Counted from the stretch's first letter, positions 1 through 48,700 are shown. The stretch: 52,021 nt of DNA from Candidatus Omnitrophota bacterium (GCA_028711575.1 JAQTSA010000001.1:1-52021); one strand, 5' to 3'. The notes: a model not told the origin generated them from the letters alone. Numbers and translations: made by a program.

Positions 1-1632
1 TTTGCTTTGGCTTTTTTGGCTGCTTCAGTAAACCATTATTTGCCTCATTATCTGCTGTTATCTTCCGGTTTTACAATTGTTTTCATTTCAGCCTTTTTCT
101 TTAATCGGTTTAAATCATTGTTCTTTCTGGCTGTAAAAAATTATTACTTGTTAATTATTACCTGTCTTGTCGGATTGTTTTTGGTTTTACCGGCATTTTA
201 TTCTTACATCGAAAGCAAAAATTATGTTTCTCCGGTAAGACAAGCTGAAGGTAAAACTTCAGGTTTAGTAGAGGATGACGGGAAAATATTAGGCAGTTGT
301 AACGCGCCGTTCTGGGGATATCGAATCCTTGTTGAAGGACTGAATAATTACCGGGCCAACATTCATCACGCTTTTTATTTTGGTATTATTCCGCTTTTAT
401 TTTCAGCGATTGCTCTTATTGGCTATCGTAACCGATATCTTTGGTCTTTTTTCTTGGCGATGCTGATCATCTTGTTGTTTGGCCTGGGCAATGACTTTTG
501 GGGGTTTCGTTTTTGTTCAAAATATATTCCCGGGTTTTCGATGTTCAGGCATACTTTTGAGCTTGGCCACTTTGTCAGTTTACTGTTGATCTGTCTTAGC
601 GGTTATGGCTTTAAGATTATCTTTTCTGATCGAATTGACGCTCTCCGGTACCGTCAATTAGTAGTTGTTTCTTTTTTATTTTTAATTCTAATTGGTTTTG
701 TTTCACAAAAGATCCACGCTATTATTTTTACGATTATCGCGATTCTGCTTGTAGTTATAATCGCGACAGTACGGAGGTTTCCGGCTCAACGAAATAAGAA
801 ACTAATTTTATCTTTTTTTTATTTCGCGGTATTCTTTTTCAGTTTTTTCGACCTTTTTATAATCCAGAAGTATGATGTCTGGAGCGCTCTTTCTCTTTAT
901 CAAAAGTATTCTCAACAGGTGAAGTTTCCTGAAATCGAGATGGTTTATCCCAGCCGGAGGAACCTTTATTTTAGCGGCCCTGATCCGATATACCCGCCTG
1001 ATTTCCGGCCGCTTATTTTTCGGGAAGCTATAGCGCTTGATAAAAAGGAGAGTTTCTCTATATTTAGGAACTCAAGATATGATGATCTCATAAAATATTC
1101 GCCTGATATTTATAAAACCAGAAAAACTCTTGGTGTTGAAAGTTCATTGTACTATTTAAGTTCGAAATTGGCGGTATTGCCGCGGGATACTCCCAAAGAT
1201 GTATTTATTCGTCAGATGTATGAGAGCAATCAACGATTGGAAGGAAAAGTTTTTTTATATGATAATGATTTTGCTGATTCAATAAACATTATTCCGGCCG
1301 AATCGGATCGGGCTTTTATCGGGTTTCGCGCTATAAACCGGTCTCCAAATTCGGTTGAATTTTACATTAATTCCTTAAACGAGGGCATATTAGTCCGGCG
1401 GGAAAACTTTCATCGCGGATGGCAGGCGTTTATTGACGGTAAAAAAACTGAAATTTTTCGGGCTAACCACGCTTTCTCAGCGATACATCTTCCCGCGGGA
1501 GAGCATCAAGTTCGTTTTGTCTTTAAGTCTGTTTATCCGGTTTTGATTTCAATTCATTCTTTTTTTGTTTTTGCGGTTACGATTTTATTTAATATTTACC
1601 TTTTTAAATATAACAGAATAGAGGTTGATTAA
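1..1632 (+). CDS. Polytopic membrane protein, YfhO-like / GT-C-type glycosyltransferase candidate (5' end lies upstream of the window)
   Basis: The frame is open from base 1 (track ORF 7..1632). There are many hydrophobic helices. The C-terminal module RENFHRGWQAFIDGKKTEIFRANHAFSAIHLPAGEHQVRFVFK plus a final TM helix resembles the C-terminus of YfhO-type membrane proteins. The stop overlaps the next start (TAATG at 1630-1634). Confidence 0.6.
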   Translation, partial: FALAFLAASVNHYLPHYLLLSSGFTIVFISAFFFNRFKSLFFLAVKNYYLLIITCLVGLFLVLPAFYSYIESKNYVSPVRQAEGKTSGLVEDDGKILGSCNAPFWGYRILVEGLNNYRANIHHAFYFGIIPLLFSAIALIGYRNRYLWSFFLAMLIILLFGLGNDFWGFRFCSKYIPGFSMFRHTFELGHFVSLLLICLSGYGFKIIFSDRIDALRYRQLVVVSFLFLILIGFVSQKIHAIIFTIIAILLVVIIATVRRFPAQRNKKLILSFFYFAVFFFSFFDLFIIQKYDVWSALSLYQKYSQQVKFPEIEMVYPSRRNLYFSGPDPIYPPDFRPLIFREAIALDKKESFSIFRNSRYDDLIKYSPDIYKTRKTLGVESSLYYLSSKLAVLPRDTPKDVFIRQMYESNQRLEGKVFLYDNDFADSINIIPAESDRAFIGFRAINRSPNSVEFYINSLNEGILVRRENFHRGWQAFIDGKKTEIFRANHAFSAIHLPAGEHQVRFVFKSVYPVLISIHSFFVFAVTILFNIYLFKYNRIEVD

Positions 1633-2342
1633 TGAAACAAAATTACAGTATTTCAGCGGTAATCCCGATGTATAATGAGGAAAGTTATGTTGCGGATGTG
1701 GTGTATAAGCTAAAAAAAGTTTTAGAGTCTTTAACTGATGATTTTGAGATAATAGCGGTTGATGACTCAAGCACCGATAATACCTTAAACCTCCTTCAGT
1801 CTTTATCACTCAGTGAAAAATGTATTAAAATAGTCAGAAACCCTCAAAACCTTGGGCTTGGCGGGACTTTGCGGGCCGGGTTTAACCGGGCGACAAAAGA
1901 CCTTATTTTTTATACTGATGCCGATTTACCATGTGATTTGTCAAACTTAAAAACAGCTTTAACTGTCGCTAAAGAAAATGATGCTGACATTGTCGCGGCT
2001 TATCGCAGCAACCGGATGGTTGAAGGCTTGAAACGGTTTATCTATTCAAGATCTTATAACTTGATTATCCGGTTACTTTTTGGTGTTAAGGTCAAAGATA
2101 TCAACTTTTCTTTTAAGCTGTTTAAATCTGATAAATTAAAAAAATTGGATTTGTTTTCTAACGGGTCTTTTATCGATAGTGAAATAATAATTAAAGCAAA
2201 AAGATCCGGTTACAAAATTGTTCAGATACCGTTAAGATACTGTTTGCGCCAGCGGGGGGTATCTAAGCTAGACAACTTTTCAAATATAAGGGTTATAATT
2301 TGCGAAATATTCAGTTTTATAAAGAAGAATAAGGCCCGATAA
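1632..2342 (+). CDS. Family 2 glycosyltransferase, polyprenol-phosphate sugar transferase type (DPM1/ArnC/GtrB-like)
   Basis: Carries the GT-A motifs SAVIPMYNEE, AVDDSSTDNT, GLGGTLRAGF and TDADL. It is 236 aa, the typical size for this subfamily. Confidence 0.85.
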   Translation: MKQNYSISAVIPMYNEESYVADVVYKLKKVLESLTDDFEIIAVDDSSTDNTLNLLQSLSLSEKCIKIVRNPQNLGLGGTLRAGFNRATKDLIFYTDADLPCDLSNLKTALTVAKENDADIVAAYRSNRMVEGLKRFIYSRSYNLIIRLLFGVKVKDINFSFKLFKSDKLKKLDLFSNGSFIDSEIIIKAKRSGYKIVQIPLRYCLRQRGVSKLDNFSNIRVIICEIFSFIKKNKAR

Positions 2343-2344
2343 TT

Positions 2345-3007
2345 ATGAGAAAGGCGGCTGATTTAAAAAAAGAAACCTTAAGTCTGTTTAAGCTTTTGCC
2401 GTGGCAAAAAAGATTATATGTGGTTTTAAGGTTTCTGACTTGTCCGTTTCAGGAAATAGCTGAGTTTGTGCCTGATTCCGGAACGGTTCTTGATTTAGGC
2501 AGTGGAATGGGTATTTTTAGTTTTTATTTGTCAAAAAAATATCCTGGTCTTTCTATTAAATCTTTTGATTATAACCAATCGAGAATAGCTGTCTGTACCG
2601 AGATAGCATTAAAAAACAGTATTTCTAATCTATCATTTTCTGCCGGAAACATTGTTAGTCAGGATTTTGCTGATAGCGCTGACTGTATTTTATTGAACGA
2701 TGTTTTCTACCAGTTGTCTTTAGCTGATAAAAAAAAGATAATAGAAAAGTGCCTGGAAAAGCTGAATTCGAACGGCTATTTAATAATAAAAGAAGTCGCT
2801 AAAAAACCGTTGATTAAGTATTGGTTTTGTTATTTTCAGGAAGTATTTGTCGCGAAAGTCTTAGGATTAAACCAGGGGTTAGTTAACATTTTAAGTGTTA
2901 GTGAAATGCTTGATCTATTAGGCCAGTATAAAGTCTCAGTATCGGTAACGCTGTTGGACCGGGGGTATTTTTATCCTCATATAGTTTATTCTATTAAAAA
3001 AAGATGA
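2345..3007 (+). CDS. Class I SAM-dependent methyltransferase
   Basis: Has the glycine-rich motif I VLDLGSGMGIFS followed by an acidic residue at the strand end (FD). Size is 220 aa. It starts 3 nt after the upstream stop. Confidence 0.75.
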   Translation: MRKAADLKKETLSLFKLLPWQKRLYVVLRFLTCPFQEIAEFVPDSGTVLDLGSGMGIFSFYLSKKYPGLSIKSFDYNQSRIAVCTEIALKNSISNLSFSAGNIVSQDFADSADCILLNDVFYQLSLADKKKIIEKCLEKLNSNGYLIIKEVAKKPLIKYWFCYFQEVFVAKVLGLNQGLVNILSVSEMLDLLGQYKVSVSVTLLDRGYFYPHIVYSIKKR

Positions 3008-4449
3008 GTAAAGTCGTTTTAGTTAATCCTTCATTAAGTGTTGACAGCCGTTATGGCGTAATGTCTGTTGCCGGGGGAGTAGAAATACCCTTTGGTATTT
3101 GTTATTTAGCCGGGTATTTAAAAGAAAAAAAAGTTTCTGTCCAGATAATTGACGCTTGCGCATTAAATCTTGACAGTGATGGCCTCATCGGTCAGATAAA
3201 AAAGACTAATTGCCGTTATTTAGGAATTACTGTTACAACTCAGCAGCTGCCCTCGGCCGCGGCTGTTGCTGAAAAGCTGAAAAAAGAAAATCCTGAACTC
3301 ATAATCATCGTCGGCGGCTGTCACATCAGTTCTTCTTATGAAGAGACTTTGAGACAGAATCCTTTTTTTGATTATGCTGTTGTCGGTGAAGGGGAAGTTA
3401 CCCTTTTTGAACTGATAAAAGCCTTAGACAATGGCCAAGACCTTGCTCAAGTTCCGGGGGTTGTTTTTAGACAGAAGGGTAATATAGTTTTTAGCGGACA
3501 AAGAGAAAGGATTAAAGATATAGATTTGTTGCCTCTTCCGGCTTTTGATTTGCTCAGCGACATCCGAAAATATTATCGGCTGACAATTCAGAACGTTATT
3601 TTTCATCCCGGGGTTTCAATTATTACTTCCCGGGGATGTTTTGGCAAATGTGTTTTTTGTGACCGGTCGGTTTTTGGTAATTGTTTGACCAGTCATAGTC
3701 CGGAGTATATCCTTAGAATGATAACATCGCTGGTTGACAGTTATGGTATAAAAAGTGTCATGTTTCAGGACGATAACTTTTTTTTGCCAAAGGCCAGGCT
3801 GTTTAAGTTCTGCGATTTGCTGGCGGCAAGTGGATTAGATCTTAAATGGTCGGCATCTTCACGGATTGACGCGGTAAGCGAAGAGTTGTTGATTAAAATT
3901 AAACAAAGCGGCTGTTGGCAGATTTCTTATGGGATAGAGAGCGCGAATCAGGAGATACTTAAGTTTTATAACAAAAAAATAGAACCGGAGCAAATCAGAA
4001 AAGTTTTATCAATGACCAAACGTTGCGGGATATTAACTAAAGGGTTTTTTATTTTTGGCGGGCCTAAGGAGAGTGAGGAGAGTTTAGCCGAGAGCATTGA
4101 ATTTATGTTAAACGCTGATTTGGATGATGTAAGTGTTACTTTTTTTACCCCTTATCCCGGTATCGAGATCTATAAGACGATATCGTCTTATGGTTCTTTT
4201 GACGCTGATTATCAAAAGATGAGTTGTTTTGATATTGTGTTTGTTCCTTTTGGTTTAACGAAAGAGAAACTTCTTTATTATCAGGCAAAAGCTTTAAAAC
4301 TTTTTTATTTCCGGATACCGGTAATTTTTTCCTATTTAAAACGGATACGGTCTTTTTCCTTTTTTTTGCGTTTAAGTGCCAGCTCTTTGGCGCTGCTTTT
4401 AAACTTTTTTAAAAAGAATGAGCGATTACGAAAAGCGGTTAATAATTAA
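3004..4449 (+). CDS. B12-binding domain radical SAM protein (paralog 1)
   Basis: N-terminal cobalamin-binding-like Rossmann region (LIIIVGGCHIS) and the radical SAM cluster motif CFGKCVFC (CX3CX2C). ATGA overlap with the upstream gene. Confidence 0.85.
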   Translation: MSKVVLVNPSLSVDSRYGVMSVAGGVEIPFGICYLAGYLKEKKVSVQIIDACALNLDSDGLIGQIKKTNCRYLGITVTTQQLPSAAAVAEKLKKENPELIIIVGGCHISSSYEETLRQNPFFDYAVVGEGEVTLFELIKALDNGQDLAQVPGVVFRQKGNIVFSGQRERIKDIDLLPLPAFDLLSDIRKYYRLTIQNVIFHPGVSIITSRGCFGKCVFCDRSVFGNCLTSHSPEYILRMITSLVDSYGIKSVMFQDDNFFLPKARLFKFCDLLAASGLDLKWSASSRIDAVSEELLIKIKQSGCWQISYGIESANQEILKFYNKKIEPEQIRKVLSMTKRCGILTKGFFIFGGPKESEESLAESIEFMLNADLDDVSVTFFTPYPGIEIYKTISSYGSFDADYQKMSCFDIVFVPFGLTKEKLLYYQAKALKLFYFRIPVIFSYLKRIRSFSFFLRLSASSLALLLNFFKKNERLRKAVNN

Positions 4450-5284
4450 TGCTGATGACTTTGGATTGACCAAAGGATTTAACCAGGCAATCACCGATTG
4501 TTTTTTAAGCGGCGCTATAACTGGGGCGTCGTTGTGCGTTGTTGGTGAAGCCTTTGATGAAGCGCTTAAAATCTATCGTGAAGTCCCGGGGATGGACCTT
4601 GGCCTGCATCTGGTTTTAACTGCCGAACGTCCGGCGGCAGCCCGGGAATCGGTAAAAACACTTCTTTTACCGAATGGTTTTTTTTACTCTGATGTTTACC
4701 AATTCGCTAAAGCTCTTATTCTAAAGAAAATAAAAGCCCGGGAAGTTTTTATAGAATTAGACGCTCAATTTAAAAAGGCTTTAAATAACGGCATAAAAAT
4801 AACGCATGTCGATAGCCATCAGTATGTTCATCTTTTACCGCTGGTTGACGATATTGTAATTGAGTTGTCAGAAAAGTATAAAGTTCCCTATATTCGCTGT
4901 CCAAGTAATGATTTGACTATTCACTCGAAAACGGTCTCAAAAAGTAGACGGGTGCAGGGATTTTTTTTGAAAATATTTTCCCGGCGGTTTTTAGCTAAAA
5001 TGAAGGCGTATCATTTTAAGCCTAGTCCTAATTGTTTTGGCTTTTTATCGGCCGGCAATTTGAGTTATCAGTCAATGGAAACAATTCTTGCTTGTTTACC
5101 GCCGGGGATAAGCGAAATATCCTGTCATCCCGGATATCCTGATTCGAGTTCGGAAAAGAAATATTCTTTTTGGAAATACAATTGGCAATCGGAAGCGGAA
5201 TTATTATGTTCGGACAGATTTTCCGATATGCTTTTAGCTAAGGGGATTGCCCTTGTTTCTTACGGTCAGCTACTAGAGGAGTGA
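4418..5284 (+). CDS. YdjC/ChbG/HpnK-type carbohydrate deacetylase
   Basis: Has LIINADDFGLT near the N-terminus and HVDSHQYVHLLP, both hallmark motifs of the YdjC family. Overlaps the upstream gene by 32 nt. Confidence 0.8.
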   Translation: MSDYEKRLIINADDFGLTKGFNQAITDCFLSGAITGASLCVVGEAFDEALKIYREVPGMDLGLHLVLTAERPAAARESVKTLLLPNGFFYSDVYQFAKALILKKIKAREVFIELDAQFKKALNNGIKITHVDSHQYVHLLPLVDDIVIELSEKYKVPYIRCPSNDLTIHSKTVSKSRRVQGFFLKIFSRRFLAKMKAYHFKPSPNCFGFLSAGNLSYQSMETILACLPPGISEISCHPGYPDSSSEKKYSFWKYNWQSEAELLCSDRFSDMLLAKGIALVSYGQLLEE

Positions 5285-5285
5285 G

Positions 5286-6707
5286 ATGCCTTTTATCCGG
5301 GAAATAAAAAAAGCTCTGCTGATCAATCCGCCTACCGGCATTTACGACCGGTTTGAGAGGTGTCAGGCTCCGGTTGAGACTGAAACTGTTGAGCTGATTC
5401 GTCCACCGATGGATTTGTTGTATTACGGAGCGGTTTTACAGAATAATCGGGCTGAAGTTCTTATTCGGGATTATCCAACTGAAAAGAAAGATTGGGCCGA
5501 TCTGGCCGACGATATTAAGAGTTATTCTCCTGATATGCTTTTAGTCAGTTCGACTATTCCCACCGAGAAGGAAGATTGTCGGGCTTTCCAAATAGCTAAA
5601 AATATTGATAGCGGTATTATCTGTGTGATTAAAGGTTTTTTCCCCGATAAGGGACAAAAAATTTTTAGGGAAAACGAATCTTTAGACTATCTTTTTCGTG
5701 AGGAGTCGGAACTATCTTTTGCCGCTTTTATCGGGAGAACTAACTTAACCGAAATTAAAGGGTTAACTTATCGCAACGGCTCAAAAATCGTAACCAATGA
5801 TGATTCCTGGGTGACTGATTTGGATAGTTTGCCTTATCCGGCAAGAAATCTGATTAATAACGCGGCCTATAAAATGCCCGATAATGGAAACCCGATGGGG
5901 CTTATTCTTGTTGCCAAGGGGTGTCCTTATTCCTGTCGGTTTTGTCTCGTTCCGGCGGTCAGCGGTAAAACTGTTCGTCTTAGAAGTACTGATTCGGTGC
6001 TAGCTGAAATAATCGAGTGCGTTAATCGTTATGGGATAAAAGATTTCTGGTTTCGGGCGGACACCTTTACTGTAAATAAAGCCTGGGTTCTCGACTTTTG
6101 CCGGAAAGTTAAGAACAGTAACCTAAATATTCGTTGGGCGACTAACAGCCGGGTTGATACAATTGATGAGTCTTTGGCGGCGGCATTAAAAGGTGCCGGC
6201 TGTTTTTCTTTAGGCTTTGGAGTTGAGTCCGGCAGTCAAAAGATTCTTGATAAAATGAACAAAGGAATAACTAAAGAACAAATACGTAAAGCTGTGTCAA
6301 TTTGTAAAAAATATAAAATACAAACCTATCTTTTTTTTGTCTTGGGCCTGCCTTGGGAGACGGTAGAGGATATTAATGAAACTATTTCTTTTGCTCGTCA
6401 GCTAAACGGTGATGTCTTTAATTTTTCTTTAGCTACCTATTTCCCTGGTACCGATTTATATGATTTTGCTGTTTCTGCCGGTTTGATCGATGAGAGTAAA
6501 GATTATTCCGGCTGTGATTATGGTCATCCGATGACCGGAACTTTGTATGTTTCTCGTCAGGACTTGATCGCTTTACAAAAGAAAGCTTACCGAAAAATAC
6601 TTTTTCGGCCGGGATATATCGTTCAGTGTCTTAAAAATATCAATAACCCCCAAAAAATTTATTGGTACGCTAAATCAGCATTACGTATATTTAAACAGTT
6701 AACCTGA
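5286..6707 (+). CDS. B12-binding domain radical SAM protein (paralog 2)
   Basis: CX3CX2C motif CPYSCRFC preceded by a B12-binding-like N-terminal domain. Starts 2 nt after the upstream stop. Confidence 0.85.
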   Translation: MPFIREIKKALLINPPTGIYDRFERCQAPVETETVELIRPPMDLLYYGAVLQNNRAEVLIRDYPTEKKDWADLADDIKSYSPDMLLVSSTIPTEKEDCRAFQIAKNIDSGIICVIKGFFPDKGQKIFRENESLDYLFREESELSFAAFIGRTNLTEIKGLTYRNGSKIVTNDDSWVTDLDSLPYPARNLINNAAYKMPDNGNPMGLILVAKGCPYSCRFCLVPAVSGKTVRLRSTDSVLAEIIECVNRYGIKDFWFRADTFTVNKAWVLDFCRKVKNSNLNIRWATNSRVDTIDESLAAALKGAGCFSLGFGVESGSQKILDKMNKGITKEQIRKAVSICKKYKIQTYLFFVLGLPWETVEDINETISFARQLNGDVFNFSLATYFPGTDLYDFAVSAGLIDESKDYSGCDYGHPMTGTLYVSRQDLIALQKKAYRKILFRPGYIVQCLKNINNPQKIYWYAKSALRIFKQLT

Positions 6708-6709
6708 AC

Positions 6710-8089
6710 ATGAAAAAAGTACTGCTAATATTTGCGTCGGCTAAAGTCAAAGGTAATTATATTAATAATCTCCCTCCGGTAGGATTGTTTTACCTGGCAT
6801 CAGCTTTAAAAAAAGGAGGGTTTACAGTTTCGATTTGTGATTGTTCAGTTGATGATTTTAGTTTAAGAGGAATAGCTCAATACGACTGCGTCGGTTTTAG
6901 CGTTAATATTTCTAACTTTGAGAATACTGTTAAACTGATCAAAAAGGTAAAAAACGCCAGTAAAACAGCTTTAGTTGTTGTCGGGGGGCCTTTACCAAGT
7001 GTTTCTCCCGAGATATTTTTTCCTCTAGAGCTTGACGCTGTTTTTATCGGTGAATCGGAAGCTAGTTTTATAGAGTATCTTAACCTGAAAAATCCAAAAC
7101 AAAGCCGGAATCGGGGATACTATTTTAAAGATTCTCAGGGAGAATGGAAATTTAATGGTGATTACCCCTTTATTGAAGATTTGGACGGCCTTAGTTTTCC
7201 TCTGTTTACAAAAGAAATGTTAAAAAAATATTATACGCCGGTTAAAAAGAAGAGCCCGGTATCAATTATGATATCTTCCCGGGGATGTCCTTACCATTGT
7301 ACTTTTTGCTGCAAAATTTTAGGAAGTAAATTTAGAATGCGTTCAGCGGAGAATGTTGTTAATGAAATAAAATGGCAAGTCGATTCTCTTGGCGCTAAAG
7401 AAATAGTTATTTATGACGATAATTTTACATTGAATAAACAAAGAGTGATCGATATTTGTGATTTAATTATTTCTCAGCGGATAGAGGTTAGTTTACAGTT
7501 AACAAACGGAGTAAGGGTCGATACTCTGGATCTAGAGCTATTGAAGAAGATGAAACAAGCCGGAGTCTGGATGATCGGTATTGCCCCGGAAAGCGGCGAC
7601 GAAAAGACTTTAGAAAAAATTGAAAAAAAGTTTGACCTTGATCAGGTCGTCAAGGTACGAAATTGGTGCTTGGGCCAAAACATTAAAGTCTGGTCTTTTT
7701 TTATGGTTGGCTTTCCCTGGGAAGATCGGGCGCTTATTCGCAAGACGATTGATTTTGCCTTACGGCTTGACGCTGACATAAGTCAGTTTTCTCAAGTTAC
7801 TCCTTTACCAAAGACAAAGTTGTATGACGATTTCTATAGCAAGAAACGATCGGAAACTTTTGAAAATGATATTAGTTTATTTCACGTTTCCGGCCGGTTG
7901 ACCGAGTGCGGCTTAAGGCCAAAAGAACTGAAAAAAATGATCGGCCGGGCCTATTGGAAAATCTATTTTAAACCTAAAAAAATGCTGAGACTTTTAAGAA
8001 TTTTTAAAATCACTGACCTTATACGTTTGAGCGGTTACACTATTCGTTCGCTTCTTGGCGGAAGTAACTTTAAAAAAAGAGATAGTTAA
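6710..8089 (+). CDS. B12-binding domain radical SAM protein (paralog 3)
   Basis: CX3CX2C motif CPYHCTFC and an N-terminal B12-binding-like domain (ALVVVGGPLPS). Confidence 0.85.
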   Translation: MKKVLLIFASAKVKGNYINNLPPVGLFYLASALKKGGFTVSICDCSVDDFSLRGIAQYDCVGFSVNISNFENTVKLIKKVKNASKTALVVVGGPLPSVSPEIFFPLELDAVFIGESEASFIEYLNLKNPKQSRNRGYYFKDSQGEWKFNGDYPFIEDLDGLSFPLFTKEMLKKYYTPVKKKSPVSIMISSRGCPYHCTFCCKILGSKFRMRSAENVVNEIKWQVDSLGAKEIVIYDDNFTLNKQRVIDICDLIISQRIEVSLQLTNGVRVDTLDLELLKKMKQAGVWMIGIAPESGDEKTLEKIEKKFDLDQVVKVRNWCLGQNIKVWSFFMVGFPWEDRALIRKTIDFALRLDADISQFSQVTPLPKTKLYDDFYSKKRSETFENDISLFHVSGRLTECGLRPKELKKMIGRAYWKIYFKPKKMLRLLRIFKITDLIRLSGYTIRSLLGGSNFKKRDS

Positions 8090-9515: not shown

Positions 9516-9902
9516 ATGGAAGAAAAAAGAAGATACCGCCGGCTTAACCGGTCGTTTATCACAAAGTTTCGGTTGAGTGCTGATAATAATGCGTCAAGCT
9601 CAGTTAATTTACCGGCGAAATGGGATATCGTGACTATCCGCAATATCAGCGGCAGCGGTATGGCGTTTATTTATCATAAACCTTTTGTTGAAGGGGTTTT
9701 GTTAGAGTTTGAGATCACTGTTGCTTCTTTGCATCGGTTGGTAAAATGTTTGGGTGTTGTTTGTCGGGTTGATTCTTTAAATGAGGCCAAACCAGGCAGT
9801 AAAATCATTCCTCTTTACGGGATAGCTGTTCATTATACTGAGATAACCAGAGAAGAACAGGAGGCTATTGATAGAGTCGTTGAGGCTTTCATTAACGGAT
9901 AA
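9516..9902 (+). CDS. PilZ domain protein (c-di-GMP receptor)
   Basis: Carries both halves of the PilZ signature: RRYRR (RxxxR) near the N-terminus and NISGSGMAF (D/NxSxxG). Confidence 0.8.
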   Translation: MEEKRRYRRLNRSFITKFRLSADNNASSSVNLPAKWDIVTIRNISGSGMAFIYHKPFVEGVLLEFEITVASLHRLVKCLGVVCRVDSLNEAKPGSKIIPLYGIAVHYTEITREEQEAIDRVVEAFING

Positions 9903-10061
9903 TTTTCTTAAAGTCTATTTTATTTCACAGCCAATTTTATTTTAAGTAGTTTTGTTATTTCCGGCAAATATAACTACAATTTTCTTATCGGTTTATAAAC
10001 TTTTATTCTATTTTAGGGGTTACTTTTTTTATGAGTCAATAAAGGTTTCTATACTTTTTTA

Positions 10062-10089
10062 TTGAAAATAGTTTAAATCTTGGTACAAT
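10062..10089 (+). promoter_or_regulatory. Sigma70-type promoter for tRNA-Arg(UCG)
   Basis: TTGAAA (10062-10067), a 16-nt spacer, then TACAAT (10084-10089) preceded by an extended -10 TGG. It lies about 20 nt upstream of the tRNA 5' end. Confidence 0.5.
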
Positions 10090-10108
10090 TCTAATATTCT
10101 AGCGCGTT

Positions 10109-10182
10109 GCGCCCGTGGCCCAATTGGATAGGGCATCTGGCTTCGGACCAGAGGGTTGCAGGTTCGAGTCCTGCCGGGCGCG
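10109..10182 (+). tRNA. tRNA-Arg (anticodon UCG)
   Basis: Hand-folded cloverleaf of 74 nt. Acceptor GCGCCCG/CGGGCGC, D stem GCCC/GGGC, anticodon stem TCTGG/CCAGA with loop CTTCGGA, T arm GCAGG-TTCGAGT-CCTGC, discriminator G. No encoded CCA. Confidence 0.9.
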
Positions 10183-10197
10183 CGTTTTTTGAACCGC
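10154..10197 (+). repeat. Left copy of a 44-nt exact direct repeat (tRNA variable loop to 3' end plus 15-nt trailer)
   Basis: GGTTGCAGGTTCGAGTCCTGCCGGGCGCGCGTTTTTTGAACCGC recurs exactly at 10442-10485. Confidence 0.9.
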
Positions 10198-10231
10198 GAT
10201 TCAGTCATCAGTGTTTTAGCGATTAATTTAA

Positions 10232-10279
10232 ACACCGATGATCACAAAGTCCTCGCTTTCAGCGTGGCAGCAGATGATC
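10232..10279 (+). repeat. Module H copy 1 (hairpin bracketed by GATGATC direct repeats)
   Basis: ACACCGATGATCACAAAGTCCTCGCTTTCAGCGTGGCAGCAGATGATC. Its homolog is at 11750-11794, where the hairpin has a different sequence but the pairing is kept. Confidence 0.8.
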
Positions 10280-10440
10280 ACCAATCCGAATCTTACTTCG
10301 TTGTAAATCTTCGGGGATAACAGCGTAGTGGGTTTTTCTTCTTGAGCGAATCTTCAAACGAAGCGTCATAAGGGGCAGAGCCCCTTTTGAGGACCGAGTG
10401 CGCCATCGTAGATGGGCGAGTGCGTAAGGACTCTCGGTCC
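10280..10440 (+). repeat. Conserved ~160-nt structured element X, copy A (candidate ncRNA or miniature mobile element)
   Basis: Runs from ACCAATCCGAATCTTACTTCG to GGACCGAG...CTCGGTCC. About 94% identical to copies B and C by hand alignment, contains several hairpins and has no ORF. Confidence 0.85.
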
Positions 10441-10441
10441 T

Positions 10442-10485
10442 GGTTGCAGGTTCGAGTCCTGCCGGGCGCGCGTTTTTTGAACCGC
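10442..10485 (+). repeat. Right copy of the 44-nt direct repeat (orphan tRNA-Arg(UCG) 3' half)
   Basis: Exact duplicate of 10154-10197, directly abutting the 3' end of X copy A. No matching 5' half is present, so this is not a functional tRNA. Confidence 0.9.
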
Positions 10486-10594
10486 TGTTAAGATATTGGC
10501 GATTCAGCGATTAAGGCTTTAAAGTTTCGAAAAAAATGTTGTTAAAATCCCGCTTGCTTTGCTAATCAAATCTAACCACTTTCCAAAAAGAATC

Positions 10595-10623
10595 TTTACA
10601 GACCGGTTTAGATAATTTAAAAT
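10595..10623 (+). promoter_or_regulatory. Possible sigma70 promoter for the 10664 gene
   Basis: TTTACA (10595-10600), a 17-nt spacer, then TAAAAT (10618-10623). Confidence 0.4.
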
Positions 10624-10663
10624 AGGTACAACATTGTTTATTCCAAAAAGTTTAAGGAGGAAA

Positions 10664-11587
10664 ATGAAAAAACTTATTTTTTTCTTGCTTGTGCTTTTAA
10701 CCTTGTCTCATCCGCTTTATTCTAAGTCGATTGTTACTTTTAAAAATGGCCGAATTGTTGAGGGAGAAATAGCTGAGCAGACCGATGAGTTTGTTAAGGT
10801 AATGTTTGAAGGCATTACAATAACTTGTTGGCTGGATGAAGTAGAAAGTATAGTTTCTGAAGATGGTACTCTTTTTAAGCCGCAAGTGATGTCGGCCCAA
10901 GTATCAGTGCAAGATGAGTTTATCCAAAGCCAGGAAACTCCGGAATCAGTATATTATAACCAAAATCAAGTTTCATATGAGGATAAGAATGAGTCAGAGT
11001 CAGATTCTTTAAATCGGTCCCAACAGACCTCTAGAGTTGAAATAGACCCAGAGTTATCAGAAGATGATCCGGCTTTAGATTCTACTTCCCGCAGCTTAAA
11101 GAAAACTGAGCTTCTTTTGTCGCCTGAAGAAACTAAAATCAAAAAGCTTGAAGAAAGAATTAAACTACTTTTTAATATCCTAAATTATATTGTTTGGGGC
11201 TATTGTCTTATGCGGATAGCAATTAATTTAAGGGTAGTAAACCCTTGGTGGTCATGGATACCCTTTTTAAATTTTGTGTTGACGTGTGATGTAGCTGAGA
11301 GGCCTCGAAAATGGGCTTACTCTGTATTCGCAGCAGTATTTGGTATGTTAGTTTTTCTTTTTATAAGTCAAATTTTTATTTTTATGGGTTTTTACTCTTT
11401 TATCTTGATAACTCTAATGGTCTTACCTCTTTTTATAGTCGCTATCTTTTCTCTTGTGATTTTTATACGCTTGTGGATATCTATTGTTGATCGGTTAGGA
11501 ATTTCACGGTGGTTGGTTATACTTTTGTTTGTTCCTTTATTTAATTATTTCTTTTTGTTCTATCTTGCTCGAATTAAGGTAGACTAG
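10664..11587 (+). CDS. Hypothetical secreted/membrane protein (signal peptide, acidic Ser/Glu-rich middle, C-terminal multi-TM region)
   Basis: ATG 10664 is preceded by AAGGAGG (the track's TTG 10634 start is less likely). The N-terminus MKKLIFFLLVLLTLSHPLYS looks like a signal peptide. The C-terminal third has about 4 hydrophobic helices and a WWSWIPFLNF motif. Confidence 0.7.
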   Translation: MKKLIFFLLVLLTLSHPLYSKSIVTFKNGRIVEGEIAEQTDEFVKVMFEGITITCWLDEVESIVSEDGTLFKPQVMSAQVSVQDEFIQSQETPESVYYNQNQVSYEDKNESESDSLNRSQQTSRVEIDPELSEDDPALDSTSRSLKKTELLLSPEETKIKKLEERIKLLFNILNYIVWGYCLMRIAINLRVVNPWWSWIPFLNFVLTCDVAERPRKWAYSVFAAVFGMLVFLFISQIFIFMGFYSFILITLMVLPLFIVAIFSLVIFIRLWISIVDRLGISRWLVILLFVPLFNYFFLFYLARIKVD

Positions 11588-11605
11588 TTGAGCCTTATAT
11601 TTTTC

Positions 11606-11634
11606 TTGTCGAGCGATGATAAAAATGATACAAT
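11606..11634 (+). promoter_or_regulatory. Sigma70-type promoter for tRNA-Arg(ACG)
   Basis: TTGTCG (11606-11611), a 17-nt spacer, then TACAAT (11629-11634) with an extended -10 TGA. This is the same TGnTACAAT design as at the first tRNA. Confidence 0.5.
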
Positions 11635-11649
11635 TCATGCCTTATTTAT

Positions 11650-11723
11650 GCGCCCGTGGCTCAATTGGATAGAGCATCTGCCTACGGAGCAGAAGGTTAC
11701 AGGTTCAAATCCTGTCGGGCGCG
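11650..11723 (+). tRNA. tRNA-Arg (anticodon ACG)
   Basis: Cloverleaf of 74 nt. Acceptor GCGCCCG/CGGGCGC, D stem GCTC/GAGC, anticodon stem TCTGC/GCAGA with loop CTACGGA, T arm ACAGG-TTCAAAT-CCTGT, discriminator G. Confidence 0.9.
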
Positions 11724-11729
11724 TACTTC
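11695..11729 (+). repeat. Left copy of a 35-nt exact direct repeat (tRNA-Arg(ACG) 3' half plus 6-nt trailer)
   Basis: GGTTACAGGTTCAAATCCTGTCGGGCGCGTACTTC recurs exactly at 12097-12131. Weaker similarity continues downstream (AGTAATTAAGTTA). Confidence 0.9.
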
Positions 11730-11749
11730 CTTCGTAGTAATTAAGTTAG

Positions 11750-11794
11750 ACACAGATGATCACAGAGTCCCGCTAACGCGGGAAGCAGATGATC
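11750..11794 (+). repeat. Module H copy 2
   Basis: ACACAGATGATCACAGAGTCCCGCTAACGCGGGAAGCAGATGATC. The hairpin is TCCCGC-TAAC-GCGGGA. Confidence 0.8.
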
Positions 11795-11852
11795 TCAGAT
11801 ATGTGTTATTTAGGAAATAGCCCTTTTGGGAAGAGTCAAACGATTGTCAAAC
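11791..11852 (+). repeat. Module S copy 1 (62 nt)
   Basis: GATCTCAGATATGTGTTATTTAGGAAATAGCCCTTTTGGGAAGAGTCAAACGATTGTCAAAC. About 95% identical to 12358-12419. Confidence 0.85.
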
Positions 11853-11900
11853 AGTAGTCAAACGCACCTTCGGTCCTTTGTACCTTCGGTGCTGTCAAAC
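11835..11900 (+). repeat. GTCAAAC heptamer cluster 1 (4 copies)
   Basis: Exact GTCAAAC at 11835, 11846, 11857 and 11894. The first three have 11-nt periodicity. Confidence 0.9.
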
Positions 11901-11935
11901 GTTGTTTTACGAAGTGACTAAAAGATTGAGCGATT

Positions 11936-12095
11936 ACCAATCCGAATCTTACTTCATTGCAAATCTTCGGGGATAACAGCGTAGTGGGTTTTTCTTCTTG
12001 AGTGAATCTTCAAACGAAGCGTCATAAGGGGCAGAGCCCCTTTTGAGGGCCGAGTGCGCCATCGAAGATGGGCTAGTGCGAAGCACTCTCGGCCC
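11936..12095 (+). repeat. Structured element X, copy B
   Basis: Same element as 10280-10440. Its outer stem is GGGCCGAG...CTCGGCCC, a compensatory change relative to copy A. Confidence 0.85.
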
Positions 12096-12096
12096 T

Positions 12097-12131
12097 GGTT
12101 ACAGGTTCAAATCCTGTCGGGCGCGTACTTC
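12097..12131 (+). repeat. Right copy of the 35-nt direct repeat (orphan tRNA-Arg(ACG) 3' half)
   Basis: Exact duplicate of 11695-11729, lying 1 nt after X copy B. Confidence 0.9.
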
Positions 12132-12196
12132 ATTAATAGTGATTAAGTAATTAAGTTATTAAGTGATTGAGTGAAAAGCCAAACGATTGAGCGATC

Positions 12197-12356
12197 ACCA
12201 ATCTGAATCTTACTTCGTTGTAAATCTTCGGGGATAACAGCGTAGTGGGTTTTTCTTCTTGAGTGAATCTTCAAACGAAGCGTCATAAGGGGCAGAGCCC
12301 CTTTTGAGGGCCGAGTGCGCCATCAAAGATGGGCCAGTGCGAAGCACTCTCGGCCC
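12197..12356 (+). repeat. Structured element X, copy C (not followed by a tRNA 3' half)
   Basis: About 96% identical to copy B (6 differences by hand alignment). It is followed directly by module S copy 2. Confidence 0.85.
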
Positions 12357-12357
12357 T

Positions 12358-12419
12358 GATCTCAGATATATGTTATTTAGGAAATAGCCTTTTAGGGAAG
12401 AGTCAAACGATTGTCAAAC
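12358..12419 (+). repeat. Module S copy 2 (62 nt)
   Basis: GATCTCAGATATATGTTATTTAGGAAATAGCCTTTTAGGGAAGAGTCAAACGATTGTCAAAC. Confidence 0.85.
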
Positions 12420-12466
12420 CGCCCGTCCGCCTGCGGCGAGACGAGGCTGTCAAACAATTGTCAAAC
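12402..12466 (+). repeat. GTCAAAC heptamer cluster 2 (4 copies)
   Basis: Exact GTCAAAC at 12402, 12413, 12449 and 12460. These form two pairs with 11-nt spacing, separated by a GC-rich hairpin. Confidence 0.9.
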
Positions 12467-12516
12467 ATTGTGGGGAAGGGATTTCAGGATACGAATTATT
12501 AAGATTTATTCTAAAG

Positions 12517-12800
12517 CAACTGTTTGACGCTCGCTCAGGCGAGCAGTTTGACAGGCGTATCTCGCCTGTTTGACGTGAACGTAGTGAACGTTTGACGGTC
12601 TTTTAATCGGGTGTAGGGTGAAGATAGATTTAGTAAAACGATAGTCAAACGTTCTAAGAGGAAGGGCTGAATATTTGGAAACAACTGTTTGACGCTCGCT
12701 TAGGCGAGCAGTTTGACACGCCGAGGCGTGTTTGACGGTCCCGCAAGGCGGGACCAGGTTGACGAAAGCGTAGTAAACGTTTGACGTTCGCTCAGCGAGC
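12517..12800 (-). repeat. Inverted-orientation GTTTGAC array with GC-rich palindromic spacers (two related sub-arrays)
   Basis: GTTTGAC at 12522, 12546, 12568, 12590, 12687, 12711, 12730 and 12779, plus the variant GGTTGAC at 12757 and one GTCAAAC at 12644. Most spacers of 12-19 nt are hairpins, e.g. GCTCGC-TCAG-GCGAGC, AGGCG-TATCT-CGCCT and GGTCCCGC-AAG-GCGGGACC. The starts of the sub-arrays at 12517 and 12682 are near-identical for about 36 nt. Confidence 0.9.
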
Positions 12801-12955
12801 TTTCGACTATCCTGCTGCTCTTGTATTTTTGTCCTTCTGCTGCCAATTCTCAGTAAATATATATTCTTTTTTGTTTCTGTAACTTTTTCTATATAAAACC
12901 GGAAATTGCGGTAAAATAAAATAGCAGTTTTTAGTCGATTGAACAAGGAGGGAAT

Positions 12956-13426
12956 ATGAAAGTAGTAGTTATTTATTATTCAAGGGGCGGCACGACAAAA
13001 TCTATGGCTGAGTTGATACATAAAACTATTAATTCGAAAGGTGTTAAAGCCGATATATTCGCCGTTGACCAATTTTCTTATAAAAATTTGCTTGATTATG
13101 ACGGAATTATTATTGGGTCACCGACATATTATGGTACATGTTCCTCTGAGATAAAAAAGTTGATCGATGATAGCGTGTCTTTACATAAAAAACTTGACGG
13201 TAAAGTCGGAGGCGTTTTTTCTTCTTCGGCCAACGTTGCCGGAGGAAACGAAACGACAGCCCTTTCGATATTGGAAGCTCTTCTGATCCACGGGATGATC
13301 GTTCAGGGTGACCCCCAAGGTGACCATTATGGCCCGGTTGCTGTTTCCGGTGTTGATGAGAGGTGCAACAACAATTGTGTTCGGTTTGCCGCGCGGTTTG
13401 TTGACCTTTTAAAAAAAATAGTATAA
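12956..13426 (+). CDS. Flavodoxin-like fold protein (WrbA/flavodoxin family)
   Basis: KVVVIYYSRGGTTKSMAE (FMN phosphate loop) and GSPTYYGT. SD AAGGAGGG lies upstream. Confidence 0.8.
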   Translation: MKVVVIYYSRGGTTKSMAELIHKTINSKGVKADIFAVDQFSYKNLLDYDGIIIGSPTYYGTCSSEIKKLIDDSVSLHKKLDGKVGGVFSSSANVAGGNETTALSILEALLIHGMIVQGDPQGDHYGPVAVSGVDERCNNNCVRFAARFVDLLKKIV

Positions 13427-13465
13427 TAATTGGTTGGAAATAGCTGATAGCGGAGTGAGGCATTT

Positions 13466-13789
13466 ATGGCAATAACGGTGTTTGTGACGATACCCAAAAA
13501 AGAAGCTGAGAACATGGCTAAAATGCTGGTTGAAGAACGAGTCTGCGCTTGTGTTAACATTGTAGACGGTGTTAAATCATTCTTTTGGTGGGAAGGGCAA
13601 GTTGATACTGCCGAAGAATCTCTTTTAATCATAAAAACAAAAGAGTCTCTGTTTTCCAGGTTAAAAGAAATGGTTTCGGCTAATCATTCTTACAGTGTTC
13701 CGGAAATAATATCTTTTAAGATCGATAACCTTAATCAGCCTTACTTGGAATGGTTAAATAAAGAAGCTAATGCTGCACCAAATACTTAG
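13466..13789 (+). CDS. cutA: Divalent-cation tolerance protein CutA
   Basis: CACVNI, FFWWEG and HSYSVPEI motifs. Size is 107 aa. Confidence 0.9.
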   Translation: MAITVFVTIPKKEAENMAKMLVEERVCACVNIVDGVKSFFWWEGQVDTAEESLLIIKTKESLFSRLKEMVSANHSYSVPEIISFKIDNLNQPYLEWLNKEANAAPNT

Positions 13790-45562: not shown

Positions 45563-45777
45563 GGTTTTCCTTCTTTTTCTAAAATTTTAGCTGTGCCAGA
45601 AATATTTTTTTAAAAGTTTTTTCGCAAATCGATAAATTTTAGGATTCTGAAATCGTTTACAAAAATAATAATTGGGCTTACGATCCGGTACTATATATAT
45701 GTTATATATAATATGGTAGTGGTTTCTTTAAAGGTCAGTGGTGTTCTTTAAGGAAATTGTTTATAAATAGTGGTGGC

Positions 45778-48700
45778 ATGATAATCTTTTTTTATAAAAA
45801 ACGTGGTGAGATTTCTTTTCGGGTTCTAGTTGTTACTTTAATCCTATCTTTTTGCCTTTCGCTTGCTTCCGGCTATTTCAATAACCAATCTTCTTCAGGT
45901 TTTGCTGAATACGTACCTGAACCGAGTAAGCTTATACCTTTAAGCCAACCTTTTAGCCCTGCTATGCTTAGGGGAGTAACCGTAAACCCCAAAGATCCTT
46001 TTCAATTTGATTTTCTTCTTGATAGTGGACAAGAAACGTTAACCAATGAAAGGTTGATTAGAGAGTCTAAGCGACTTATTAAATATTTTTATGGTGCTTT
46101 AACTGTTCCGTCTGAGGACCTTTGGGTAAACCTTTCTCCTTATGAATCGGAAAGGATAGTTCCCACCGAGCTTGGTTCAACTGAACTAGGTAAAGGTCTT
46201 CTAGAGCAAGATTATATTTTAAAACAGCTTCTTGCTTCAGTTACTCATCCGGAGAGTCCTTTGGGAATGAAGTTTTGGCAGAAAGTTTATCAACGCGCTT
46301 ATTCCTTGTATGGGACGTCAGATATTCCGATTAATACGTTTGATAAGATATGGATTGTTCCTGATAGGGCAGTAATCTATGAAGATGGAAACAAAGCCTA
46401 TATCAAAGAAAGTAATTTGAAGGTTATGCTAGAAGAGGATTATCTGGCTTTGGAAAAAAATCGCAATAATCCTGATAAAGCTTTGAATTCTATCGGCGTC
46501 GATAAGATCAACCAGATAAGTAAAGTATCTTCAGATATCATGAGAGATATCGTTCTACCTGAAATAGAGCGAGACATAAATACAGGTGAAAATTTTGCGG
46601 TGTTACGTCAGATTTACAATTCTTTAATCCTTGCGGTATGGTTCAAACAAAAGTTAAAGACACATATCTTAAATCAGGTTTACTCGGATAGAAACAAGAT
46701 AAAGGGCGTCGACATTAATGACCGAAATGTTAAAGATAAAATCTACGCGTATTATTTGGAAGCATTTAAGAAAGGTGCCTACGATTTAATCAGAAATGAC
46801 TATGACCCGGTTACAGATCGAAAGATTAAACGTCGATACTTTTCCGGTGGATTTGACGGATCAAAAGTTCTAGATGTTATTTCTGGTAGTCCGTTTCCGA
46901 AAGGAGGCATTAGTTCTGAAGGTAAAGTCATTGCCTTAAGCGTTAGGACTTATCCGGCATTAACGGGAATGGGTGTTGGCGGTGGATCGGAATCTGGCGG
47001 TAGCGATAGTTCTTTTGGTGTCGGTGGTGGTGCGGTAAAAAAAATCGACCCAATAGAAGATCAAATAAGACGACAACAACTAAAAAAACGGTTATCTTTT
47101 TCGGCGCTGCTTGAAAATGTTCTGAGCCATGTTGTATATCTTTTAAGGCGATCGCCGGCTTTTTTTTTAGCGGAGCATCTTACAGATAAGAATTCACCCA
47201 AAACGGCTAACGATTATACTGCAGCAGAACTGAATCCATACGATTCATCTACCTACCATCAAACGGTTCATCAGGCGATTTCTTCCGGTTTACCATCAGA
47301 TTTAGATAAGAACTTTGAGAATTATCGAGATCATGATGGTCAAGTCGTTTTGCCTGTAAAAGACCTTTTTAAGAATACAGGTCTTATTGCTCACATTGGT
47401 TTAGGACAGGTTTACGATGAACCTGTCATTTATATAGATTCCCAATTTAATGGGCAAGATCGAGAGGATATAAAAGCTCACGAACGATATGAAATTGAGA
47501 GATGGCAGTGGCTTCGCAGTGGGTTGGGTCTTAATTATCAGCAAATGCGTAATTGGATACGTGATAATTCAAATTATACCGGATCAGGGACGGCACAGCG
47601 TCTTGCGGCAAAATGGCACGTTCAAGCTCCGAGTGTTCGGCATATTTATCTGCGTATTCAGGGAGATAAAGTTCAATCAGCTTCAATGCAGGCGACGGTT
47701 GCTAGTGTCGAAGATGTTTATGATGATTCTCCTGACGTAGTCTTGGCGGCGGGTTTTTCTTCAGCAATTGATATGGATCCTGAAACATTAGAAATCCTAG
47801 ACCTTACTATTGAGGAAGTCTTAAAAGAAAAGCAAGCTCAGTCTGGTAGAGAAGTCTTTAATTCTGGACCTTTAGTTTCGATAATTTTCGAACAGGACAT
47901 CCAAAGGCATAGCTCGGAATTTAGCGATCGATTATCTCAATATATACCATACCTAAATGATCGCTATAGCAATCAATATTATTTTACGAACTTAGCCAAT
48001 TATCTGGACTATATCTCTGAACGGTTATTCAAAGATAGTTACGACAGTGAATTGATACCCACCAGTTATCATTTAACATGGGGAGATTTCAAGAGGCATA
48101 TTCGTCGTGAAATAATCTTTTTTGGCGATAATTCCCGTAAAGCAGTTGAACGAATCCTGTTTTTATTAGGTGTCGATCCTTATGGGGTAAACAGCAATGA
48201 GATAGAAAGCAGAAAAGCATACCTGCAAAGAGTAATTGAACGCTGGCATATATTTGGACCGATAAAATCCTTGGCTTTAGGCGAATTTGTTTTTGTTGAA
48301 TCAGGTAAAGACAAAGGGGTTTATCTTAAAGTGAAAGTTCCGCTTAAGGGCCAACGGTTAGCAAGAACTGATGAAACGGCGGATCAAGAGCGAGAACTTG
48401 TTTTTAAGATTTCGGTACTGAATAACGCTATTGTTAAACCAGGTAATAAGGCTGATTTTGAGAATAGTCAACACTGGCACAATATCTTAAATAGTGTCCG
48501 TTATGCTATGTTTAATCCCTTACCCAATGATGTGGTTATGCGCGCTCCGCATGGAAGGATGTATCATCATACCTTTTCTGTTAACAGTAGCCTTCAAGAT
48601 CATCGGGTCGTTTTTCGTCCGATACTTTATGACAATGAGGACACTGATTCGGGCGTTGCCGGGGAAATAGTAATTACCGGTATTGCTACTCACTTCAATA

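Follow-up and report, generated by a model that had tools for sequence, protein, structure and literature searches.

Two tRNA-Arg genes of a Candidatus Omnitrophota bacterium (GCA_028711575.1 JAQTSA010000001.1:1-52021; these 52,021 nt are in the following called the window) are followed by copies of a ~162-nt element, here named E, and the locus raises the question of what E is: an RNA gene, a mobile element, or the product of recombination at tRNA genes. An initial annotation of this DNA, made without database searches, had proposed a structured non-coding RNA. We see about an even chance that E forms the conserved core of either a tRNA-linked repeat or a tiny, non-autonomous integrative module, which would have arisen by site-specific recombination at the tRNA T-arm with a recombinase acting in trans. 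The fused flanks of the copies, the shuffling of modules between strains, a truncated copy and the absence of E from distant relatives all point to an origin by recombination or as mobile DNA, and an RNA function of E need not be assumed.

The window contains three copies of E, all in the same orientation as described initially, on the strand with positive GC skew (Table 1). E_B and E_C differ by 5 mismatches over 161 aligned columns, and E_A differs from each of them by 8 mismatches and one 1-nt indel over the same length, close to the differences that had been counted by hand. Repeats of this length and with pairwise identities of 95–97% cannot have arisen by chance. E_A starts 97 nt 3′ of the tRNA gene T1 and E_B 212 nt 3′ of T2. 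No open reading frame (ORF) of more than 45 codons overlaps any copy, consistent with their earlier description as lacking ORFs. Each copy contains a minus-strand open frame of 37–45 codons (10293–10406, 11949–12086 and 12210–12347) for a basic peptide (…MAHSALKRGSAPYDASFEDSLKKKNPLRCYPRRF…); no ribosome-binding site of the Shine-Dalgarno type is visible by eye for these frames, and they are probably fortuitous. E also holds three direct RAATCTTM repeats, which are candidate protein-binding sites; this motif occurs 17 times elsewhere in the window, on both strands.

Table 1 Positions of the tRNA-Arg genes, E copies, duplicated segments and spacer modules in the window.
Feature	Position	Strand	Evidence or similarity
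T1, intact tRNA-Arg(TCG)	10109–10183	+	ARAGORN; Rfam tRNA model, 69.2 bits
b1 (native), variable loop, T-arm, acceptor 3′ strand of T1 and 14 nt of trailer	10154–10197	+	repeat family D2
U, hairpin module with GATGATC direct repeats, ending in GCAGATGATC directly 5′ of E_A	10222–10279	+	83% identical to 11740–11794
E_A, copy A of E	10280–10441	+	repeat search; covariance model R2, 96.7 bits
b1′, duplicate of T1 3′ part, fused to the last base of E_A	10442–10485	+	44/44 identical to 10154–10197
T2, intact tRNA-Arg(ACG)	11649–11724	+	ARAGORN; Rfam tRNA model
b2 (native), T-arm-to-trailer segment of T2	11695–11729	+	source of the duplicate after E_B
U′, second copy of U, joined to V and not to E (E-less junction of GCAGATGATC with TCAGAT)	11740–11794	+	repeat family D12
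V (native), 63-nt non-tRNA segment	11790–11852	+	repeat family D7, 95%
E_B, copy B of E	11936–12096	+	repeat search; covariance model R2, 106.2 bits
b2′, duplicate of T2 3′ part, fused to the last base of E_B	12097–12131	+	35/35 identical to 11695–11729
S2, spacer of 8-nt TRATTRAG-type repeats, ending in GAGCGATC	12132–12196	+	TRF, period 8, 4.6 copies at 12138–12174
E_C, copy C of E, with GATC on both sides	12197–12356	+	repeat search; covariance model R2, 105.3 bits
V′, duplicate of V, fused to the end of E_C	12357–12419	+	60/63 identical to 11790–11852
Heptamer array GTCAAAC/GTTTGAC with short variable hairpins between	12402–12785		repeat families D6, D8–D10; shorter block at 11835–11900

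All copies of E stop at the identical nucleotide (…CTCGGYCC(T)) and pass directly into a duplicate of DNA located a few hundred bases upstream. These duplicated right flanks had been missed initially, as had a constant GAT(C/T) left flank and the fact that the spacers are shuffled repeat modules. Each of the two loci consists of an intact tRNA gene and a direct repeat of its own 3′ part further downstream (b1 and b1′ at locus 1, b2 and b2′ at locus 2). The duplication begins in both tRNAs at GGTT, 4–5 nt 5′ of the T stem, and extends beyond the tRNA 3′ end; this start is compatible with a crossover in the T-loop, at a point that is not exactly locatable. Because each fragment matches its own tRNA, gene-specific trailer included, and the two genes are only 87% identical, the junction between E and tRNA must have been made separately at T1 and at T2. 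The gene-specific trailers also rule out an ancient block duplication of a whole tRNA-E locus. The exception to the rule that E precedes a copy of a tRNA 3′ end is E_C, which is followed by V′; the first E copies of the two related contigs introduced below conform to it.

Looking at the native left contexts of the three duplicated segments, we found a common motif, CAGAnG.T..CAG.T (empirical p ~7e-4). The sequence is GGACCAGAG directly before GGTTGCAGGT at T1, GGAGCAGAA before GGTTACAGGT at T2 and GAAGCAGA before TGATCTCAGAT at V. In a junction-anchored comparison of 17 positions, V agrees with T2 at 11, a similarity to T2 that is reached by only 69 of the 104,008 17-mers in the window. The same end of E is joined to sites with a common motif, which makes a sequence-specific process more plausible than three illegitimate events at random.

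The left side of E is also constant, with the flanks of all six known copies (those of the window and of the related contigs L082 and L083) ending in GATC or GATT. This could be the trace of a non-autonomous transposon, either a miniature inverted-repeat transposable element (MITE) or a palindrome-associated transposable element (PATE) of the IS200/IS605 type, that inserts 3′ of GAT(C/T) as folded single-stranded DNA and whose flanks were later scrambled by recombination between copies. E resembles the PATEs in its small, typical size, its subterminal hairpins in the absence of terminal inverted repeats, its short constant left-flank motif and its single orientation on the strand with positive GC skew. 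Likewise shared with PATEs and with the ends of omega RNAs is a structured 3′ end followed by target-derived sequence, with a common motif 5′ of the native targets. The GATC on both sides of E_C fits this idea as well, and the junction of U′ and V resembles a precise empty site: because GATC flanks E_C on both sides, it is the exact product expected from E-U-V minus E. A transposon, however, leaves a contiguous empty site, and left and right flanks are contiguous in no observed empty site for any copy. The right flanks of E natively follow CAGAnG and are duplicates of upstream DNA, 35–63 nt long, which is not a product of transposition. Identical 4 nt on both sides occur only at E_C, there is no target-site duplication of constant length, and no inverted repeat links the two ends of E, the only arms being internal to its 3′ domain. 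Neither TnpA nor TnpB is encoded within the window, which holds no other copies of E. An identity of E with a known insertion sequence or MITE, which the initial annotation had named as a possible outcome, found no match; E has no homology to any known element and gave no match in phage, plasmid or viral collections, the tRNA part alone being matched by blastn in distant mode against phages and plasmids. A transposon of either type is therefore, in our view, unlikely.

The DNA between the tRNA genes and the E copies consists of recurring modules. The hairpin of U is flanked by the direct repeats GATGATC(A/T)C (10236–10279, and 11746–11794 for U′) and occurs also in L083 (150–195), before a truncated E. 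It is joined to E at two loci (locus 1 of the window, where GCAGATGATC is followed directly by ACCAATC, and L083) and to V at one. The terminus GCAGATGATC resembles the junction of anticodon stem and variable loop of the two tRNA-Arg genes. The spacer S2 is homologous to the spacer 3′ of T2 in L082. Beyond E_C, in the ORF-less insert that separates T2 from the flavodoxin gene, lies an array of heptamers that is present in L082 and absent from L083; 17 of the 24 heptamers of the window fall within 11835–12785, compared with an expectation of 5.6 for all 52 kb. Part of them form direct repeats at a spacing of 11 nt, others are spaced at 22–24 nt, the latter with a different small GC-rich hairpin for each pair and in two inverted blocks. 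By its sequence this looks like an iteron, centromere or operator array. The inserts contain no ORF above ~57 codons except a 146-codon minus-strand frame (12506–12946) within the heptamer repeats.

To trace the distribution of E, we searched sequence collections and related loci. Exact E-core patterns had no match in one genome per GTDB species and, with three patterns, none in IMG/VR; in the JGI metagenomes the only match was contig L082, found with one 20-mer within which L083 differs. A covariance model, put forward initially as a way to additional copies, gave the same result as nhmmer: with two such models, the 1.6 Mb of related loci contained no copies beyond the six already known, which are spread over three closely related genomes, and the 52-kb window held none besides its three. 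The contig L082 is from a sister strain. Its T2 locus reads T2-S-E-b2-S-E-V′, a head-to-tail tandem with (b-S-E) present twice as a 261-nt unit; it is devoid of the 172-nt U′-V-W block that interrupts the array in the window, and E starts 57 nt 3′ of T2. The first E of L082 differs from E_B at 5 positions inside the element and at the flank base that distinguishes GATC from GATT. Identity between the strains is 92% to the left of E_B (L082 1–355; window 11427–11748) and 99.6% to the right (356–2221; 11920–13786). This jump across E_B points to a recombination breakpoint, or to imported DNA that ends at the repeat array.

The contig L083, reached through its flavodoxin protein, is from a sister species (88% identical in amino acids, with 1.17 kb of coding sequence 87% identical as DNA) and has the order (…E 3′ part)-b2-S-U-E, in which the second E is truncated after 56 nt. 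Its E parts are 93–97% identical to the copies of the window, while the remaining intergenic DNA is unalignable. A conservation of E above that of coding DNA between species fits recent spread or constraint. The three genomes hence differ at the level of modules, and an empty tRNA site was not found in a close relative.

In more distant Omnitrophota loci (L084–L092, ~71–74% flavodoxin identity, including a complete genome of 1.5 Mb), nhmmer and the covariance model detected no E, and the tRNA-Arg gene is kept directly upstream of the flavodoxin gene. One of them, L084, has genes for Terminase_2, HTH_17, AAA_25 and SpoVG-like proteins (phage- or satellite-like; 281–6210) in front of tRNA-Arg(ACG), and 3′ of this tRNA an unrelated 107-nt tandem repeat (6311–6567, 2.4 copies, 99% matches). 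This suggests that the tRNA-Arg/flavodoxin locus is a general hotspot. With these genes and this repeat in one of the distant relatives and E in none of them, the slot downstream of tRNA-Arg is plastic in the phylum, and E is its young, lineage-restricted occupant. Syntenic loci reached through the Dus gene were too distant (the best 50% identical), and a search via the PilZ neighbor returned only a 726-nt contig ending inside the T-arm of T1. The short-read contigs L001, L083 and L094 break inside a tRNA or E, as would be anticipated for repeats.

These data bear on an alternative in which E is a neutral segmental duplication: intergenic DNA, functionless at both the DNA and the RNA level, of which slippage during replication or template switching at hairpins made a few copies. 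The narrow distribution, the truncated copy of L083, the local 8-nt and 11-nt repeats, the heptamer arrays and the different 107-nt tandem repeat in the same intergenic slot of another Omnitrophota genome are all in line with such a process. It leaves unexplained why the same junction nucleotide was used at two tRNA genes and at V, why the targets share a motif, and why E is 93–97% conserved across species in otherwise unalignable intergenic DNA, and we regard it as improbable.

When considered by architecture, E would be a new sequence family of the tRNA-linked-repeat kind, closest to the 178-nt tyrT/RttR repeats of Escherichia coli together with tandem islands bounded by attachment (att) sites. 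We checked the E. coli genome (NC_000913.3) and found the 178-nt unit three times 3′ of tyrV, the nearest copy overlapping the last 19 nt of the tRNA and every copy in register with this 19-nt stretch of the tRNA-Tyr 3′ end, with the annotated small RNA RttR and the tiny ORF tpr within these repeats. To our knowledge, the origin of the E. coli tyrT repeats is itself not settled. E shares with them its non-coding nature, a similar size of ~160–180 nt, a co-directional position directly 3′ of a tRNA gene, the head-to-tail arrangement of units that each carry a copy of the tRNA 3′ end (E_C excepted), and a short basic ORF inside the unit (tpr in E. coli, the opposite-strand 37–45 codons in E). 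Unlike the E. coli repeats, to which E has no similarity in sequence or by Rfam, E is joined to tRNA fragments of 35–44 nt that start before the T stem instead of 19 nt, has its junction in two distinct tRNA genes and once outside any tRNA, and forms arrays interrupted by U, V, W and heptamer arrays.

An element that integrates in a tRNA gene carries a 3′ part by which the gene is rebuilt (PMC1635311), and the extent of the duplicated segments, from before the T stem to beyond the tRNA, is what such an element would leave. In Dehalococcoides, tandem islands at ssrA are delimited by direct repeats copied from the 3′ end of this gene, each preceded immediately by a conserved motif, and integrase-less cis-mobilizable elements (CIMEs) have been documented (PMC3146451). 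The E loci have the same plan: the target gene is intact on one side and its 3′ part recurs downstream as direct repeats, with tandem accretion, a conserved element-side motif abutting the repeat, strong variability between strains and no integrase in the unit. The differences lie in size and content, 250–570 bp without ORFs versus gene-carrying islands of kilobases, in the one junction at a non-tRNA secondary site, and in the lack of an integrase gene within the 52-kb window.

Based on these parallels, the following course of events can be proposed. The enzyme acting at the T-arm would be a recombinase supplied from another part of the genome or by a helper element, with a tRNA-targeting integrase as the likeliest candidate. 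The inserted unit would be a small circular module (tRNA 3′ part, spacer S or U, E), and its integration would leave the intact tRNA as attL and the fusion of E with the tRNA 3′ fragment as attR, so that E would represent the element-side arm beside the crossover. The RAATCTTM repeats and the GC-rich end with its inverted repeats or three-way junction may then serve as protein-binding or folded-DNA features. The junction of E_C and V′ could stem from recombination between attR and a tRNA-like secondary site at the U-V boundary. The strain variants would have arisen afterwards, when repeated modules (b, S, E and V) underwent homologous exchange. The U′-V junction, which is what a removal of E between its flanking GATCs would leave, also speaks for this course.

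Several points weigh against this proposal. Units of 250–400 bp would be extraordinarily small for integrative elements. The last E in the T2 array is followed by V′ and not by a terminal tRNA fragment, requiring the extra event at a secondary site. Neither a circular form nor one with an empty site was seen among the loci examined, and the sample comprises six E copies from three closely related genomes. Genes for an integrase, a transposase, a reverse transcriptase or Cas proteins were found neither in the 52-kb window nor linked to any E copy; this check covered 40 scanned ORFs of the window, mostly of housekeeping type, and the 146-codon frame in the heptamer array was not Pfam-scanned. 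The E module is accordingly non-autonomous at best. A purely replicative origin, by template switching at the hairpins of E, may also account for the arrangement.

The initial reading of E as a structured RNA was examined through its fold and its variation. The 3′ 52 nt of E fold alike in every copy, into an 8–9 bp stem around two hairpins (a three-way junction), and an invariant hairpin AAGGGG-CAGAG-CCCCTT lies 5′ of it. All helices quoted initially were found in the copies. One pair of the terminal stem GGRCCGAG/CTCGGYCC is A-T in E_A, G-C in E_B and E_C and G.T in L082, and the compensatory exchange reported before is thus real, with an intermediate in the sister strain. The hairpin GCCATC-NNN-GATGG varies among the copies in its loop alone, and AGTGC-GAA-GCACT of E_B and E_C becomes AGTGC-GTAA-GGACT in E_A, with one pair broken. 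Over the six copies, which represent five distinct sequences, 99.2% of the cells pair; 25 of the 27 pairs are invariant, one is compensatory and one broken. The compensatory pair is A-U in two sequences, G-C in two and G.U in one, and the observed covariation score was reached by 159 of 500 column shuffles. The initial claim, that a folded RNA would tolerate changes at the substituted sites, is therefore not statistically established. Together with two other differences, the covarying positions form two linked haplotypes, because of which the covariation amounts to about one evolutionary event. Among the 13 variable columns of the whole element, 9 are unpaired and 4 lie in predicted pairs. Two wobble states, U.G in the 5′ hairpin (from C-G) and G.U in the terminal stem, would both be mismatches on the minus strand, which mildly favors the plus strand, as RNA or as single-stranded DNA. 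Folding of the whole element gave an unremarkable z of −1.5 for the plus strand and −4.2 for the minus strand. According to these predictions the 3′ three-way junction is a plausible structure and probably constrained. Conservation of a hairpin is as compatible with a site of DNA recombination as with an RNA, and with the present data a folded RNA and hairpinned or inverted-repeat DNA are indistinguishable.

We also compared E with known RNA families. The comparison with Rfam suggested initially yielded, at the gathering threshold, matches only to T1 and T2. With Rfam 15 at e-values up to 10 over positions 9900–12900, the only hit touching E was a sub-threshold match to YrlA that overlapped the end of E_A and b1′ (16.5 bits, compared with a gathering score of 69; e-value 7.3). 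The models for rtT (RF00391), tmRNA, 6S RNA, SRP RNA, RNase P RNA and HEARO/omega RNA did not match E.

It is nevertheless possible, at a clearly lower probability than an even one, that E is an RttR-like RNA of a tRNA operon (a structured non-coding RNA or a processed spacer RNA), transcribed from the tRNA-Arg promoters and freed by tRNA-processing nucleases, with the copies and their tRNA fragments resulting from tandem duplication and unequal crossing-over, an origin that has been proposed for the 178-nt tyrT repeats of E. coli. A promoter scan gave sigma-70-like matches just 5′ of T1 (10062–10089) and T2 (11606–11634), in agreement with the initial placement of E 3′ of tRNA promoters. Because E follows these promoters, on the same strand and directly 3′ of the tRNAs, it is probably transcribed within the tRNA-Arg precursor, like RttR in E. 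coli. The same scan showed no terminator between T2 and E_B but a terminator-like T-run between T1 and E_A. In E. coli the tRNA and the tyrT repeat unit share a transcript, from which a small RNA of uncertain function derives (PMC3318445; bioRxiv 10.1101/2024.07.17.603846); RttR is accepted as the RNA product of one such unit (PMC3318445), and the tyrV-rttR architecture is that of the E loci. The identical three-way junction in all copies, the stem states permitted on the plus strand only, the position of the variable sites of the 3′ domain mostly in loops and at the junction, and the conservation of E above coding DNA between species would all be expected of such an RNA. Set against this are the non-significant covariation, the ordinary plus-strand fold beside the stronger one of the minus strand, the T-run behind T1, the lack of a match to Rfam including rtT, and the restriction of E to the closest relatives, with one copy truncated. 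Tandem duplication, moreover, fails to explain three different right flanks, a single end-point and a common target motif. What stands of the initial reading is a repeated, non-coding sequence foreign to Rfam with a consistent 3′ fold; its covariation is not significant, and the flanks and the module shuffling suggest recombination. An RttR-like RNA and an origin by recombination are not mutually exclusive.

The sequence around the junctions would also allow a more speculative interpretation, to which we assign a very low probability: E could be the scaffold of a guide- or bridge-type nucleic acid for a recombinase or nuclease encoded elsewhere, and the loci a protein-less homing module for tRNA genes, programmed by RNA or folded DNA, in a phylum that has been little studied. 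In E the three-way junction is directly followed by a copy of the targeted site (the tRNA-Arg T-arm twice, V once), the CAGAnG sequence 5′ of all three native targets resembles a target-adjacent motif, and the invariant loop G-CAGAG-C of E is nearly the same hexamer.

If T-arm recombination is correct, E would be among the smallest att-bounded modules at a tRNA gene, with 250–400 bp and no genes. It would be a second clear case of the unexplained tyrT/RttR arrangement of E. coli, in a distant uncultured phylum, and could help to explain the origin of tRNA-linked repeats by site-specific recombination rather than random duplication. At present, E adds no validated new RNA class. For annotation, it should be considered that fusions of this kind yield false tRNA calls and break short-read assemblies at tRNA genes. 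ARAGORN called a tRNA-Glu(CTC) at 10398–10471, composed of the 3′ end of E_A and the duplicated T-arm of tRNA-Arg(TCG); the Rfam tRNA model did not match it, and the call is likely an annotation artefact. The fusion of E and b was also rejected as a genuine tRNA or tRNA-like gene, since ARAGORN called copy A alone and the Rfam tRNA model remained unmatched. The same holds for E as a diverged tRNA 5′ half, for which no convincing alignment was seen by eye, whereas b is 100% identical to the tRNA.

The E copies occupy non-coding DNA around the two tRNA-Arg genes, with a PilZ gene on one side and a flavodoxin gene on the other. The genes of the window are of housekeeping type (among them those for IleRS, IF-2, TrpRS, RuvB, Dus and radical-SAM enzymes, and isoprenoid genes), lie essentially all on the plus strand at a GC content of ~38–42%, and have their closest protein relatives in metagenome-assembled genomes of Candidatus Omnitrophota. 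Between the two tRNA-Arg loci lies an ORF of 307 amino acids (10664–11587) with a Shine-Dalgarno sequence AGGAGG that is good by eye. It has no Pfam domain, a comparison with 5.8 billion proteins returned nothing but an identical sequence, and the ORF might represent cargo of this plastic region. Further upstream, three B12-binding radical-SAM paralogs (3004–4449, 5286–6707 and 6710–8089) are encoded within ~5 kb, with a YdjC-like gene (4418–5284) in between and glycosyltransferase and methyltransferase genes adjoining. At the far end of the window, a reading frame that stays open for at least 2,088 codons (45757–52021) runs off the end and appears to belong to a giant gene.

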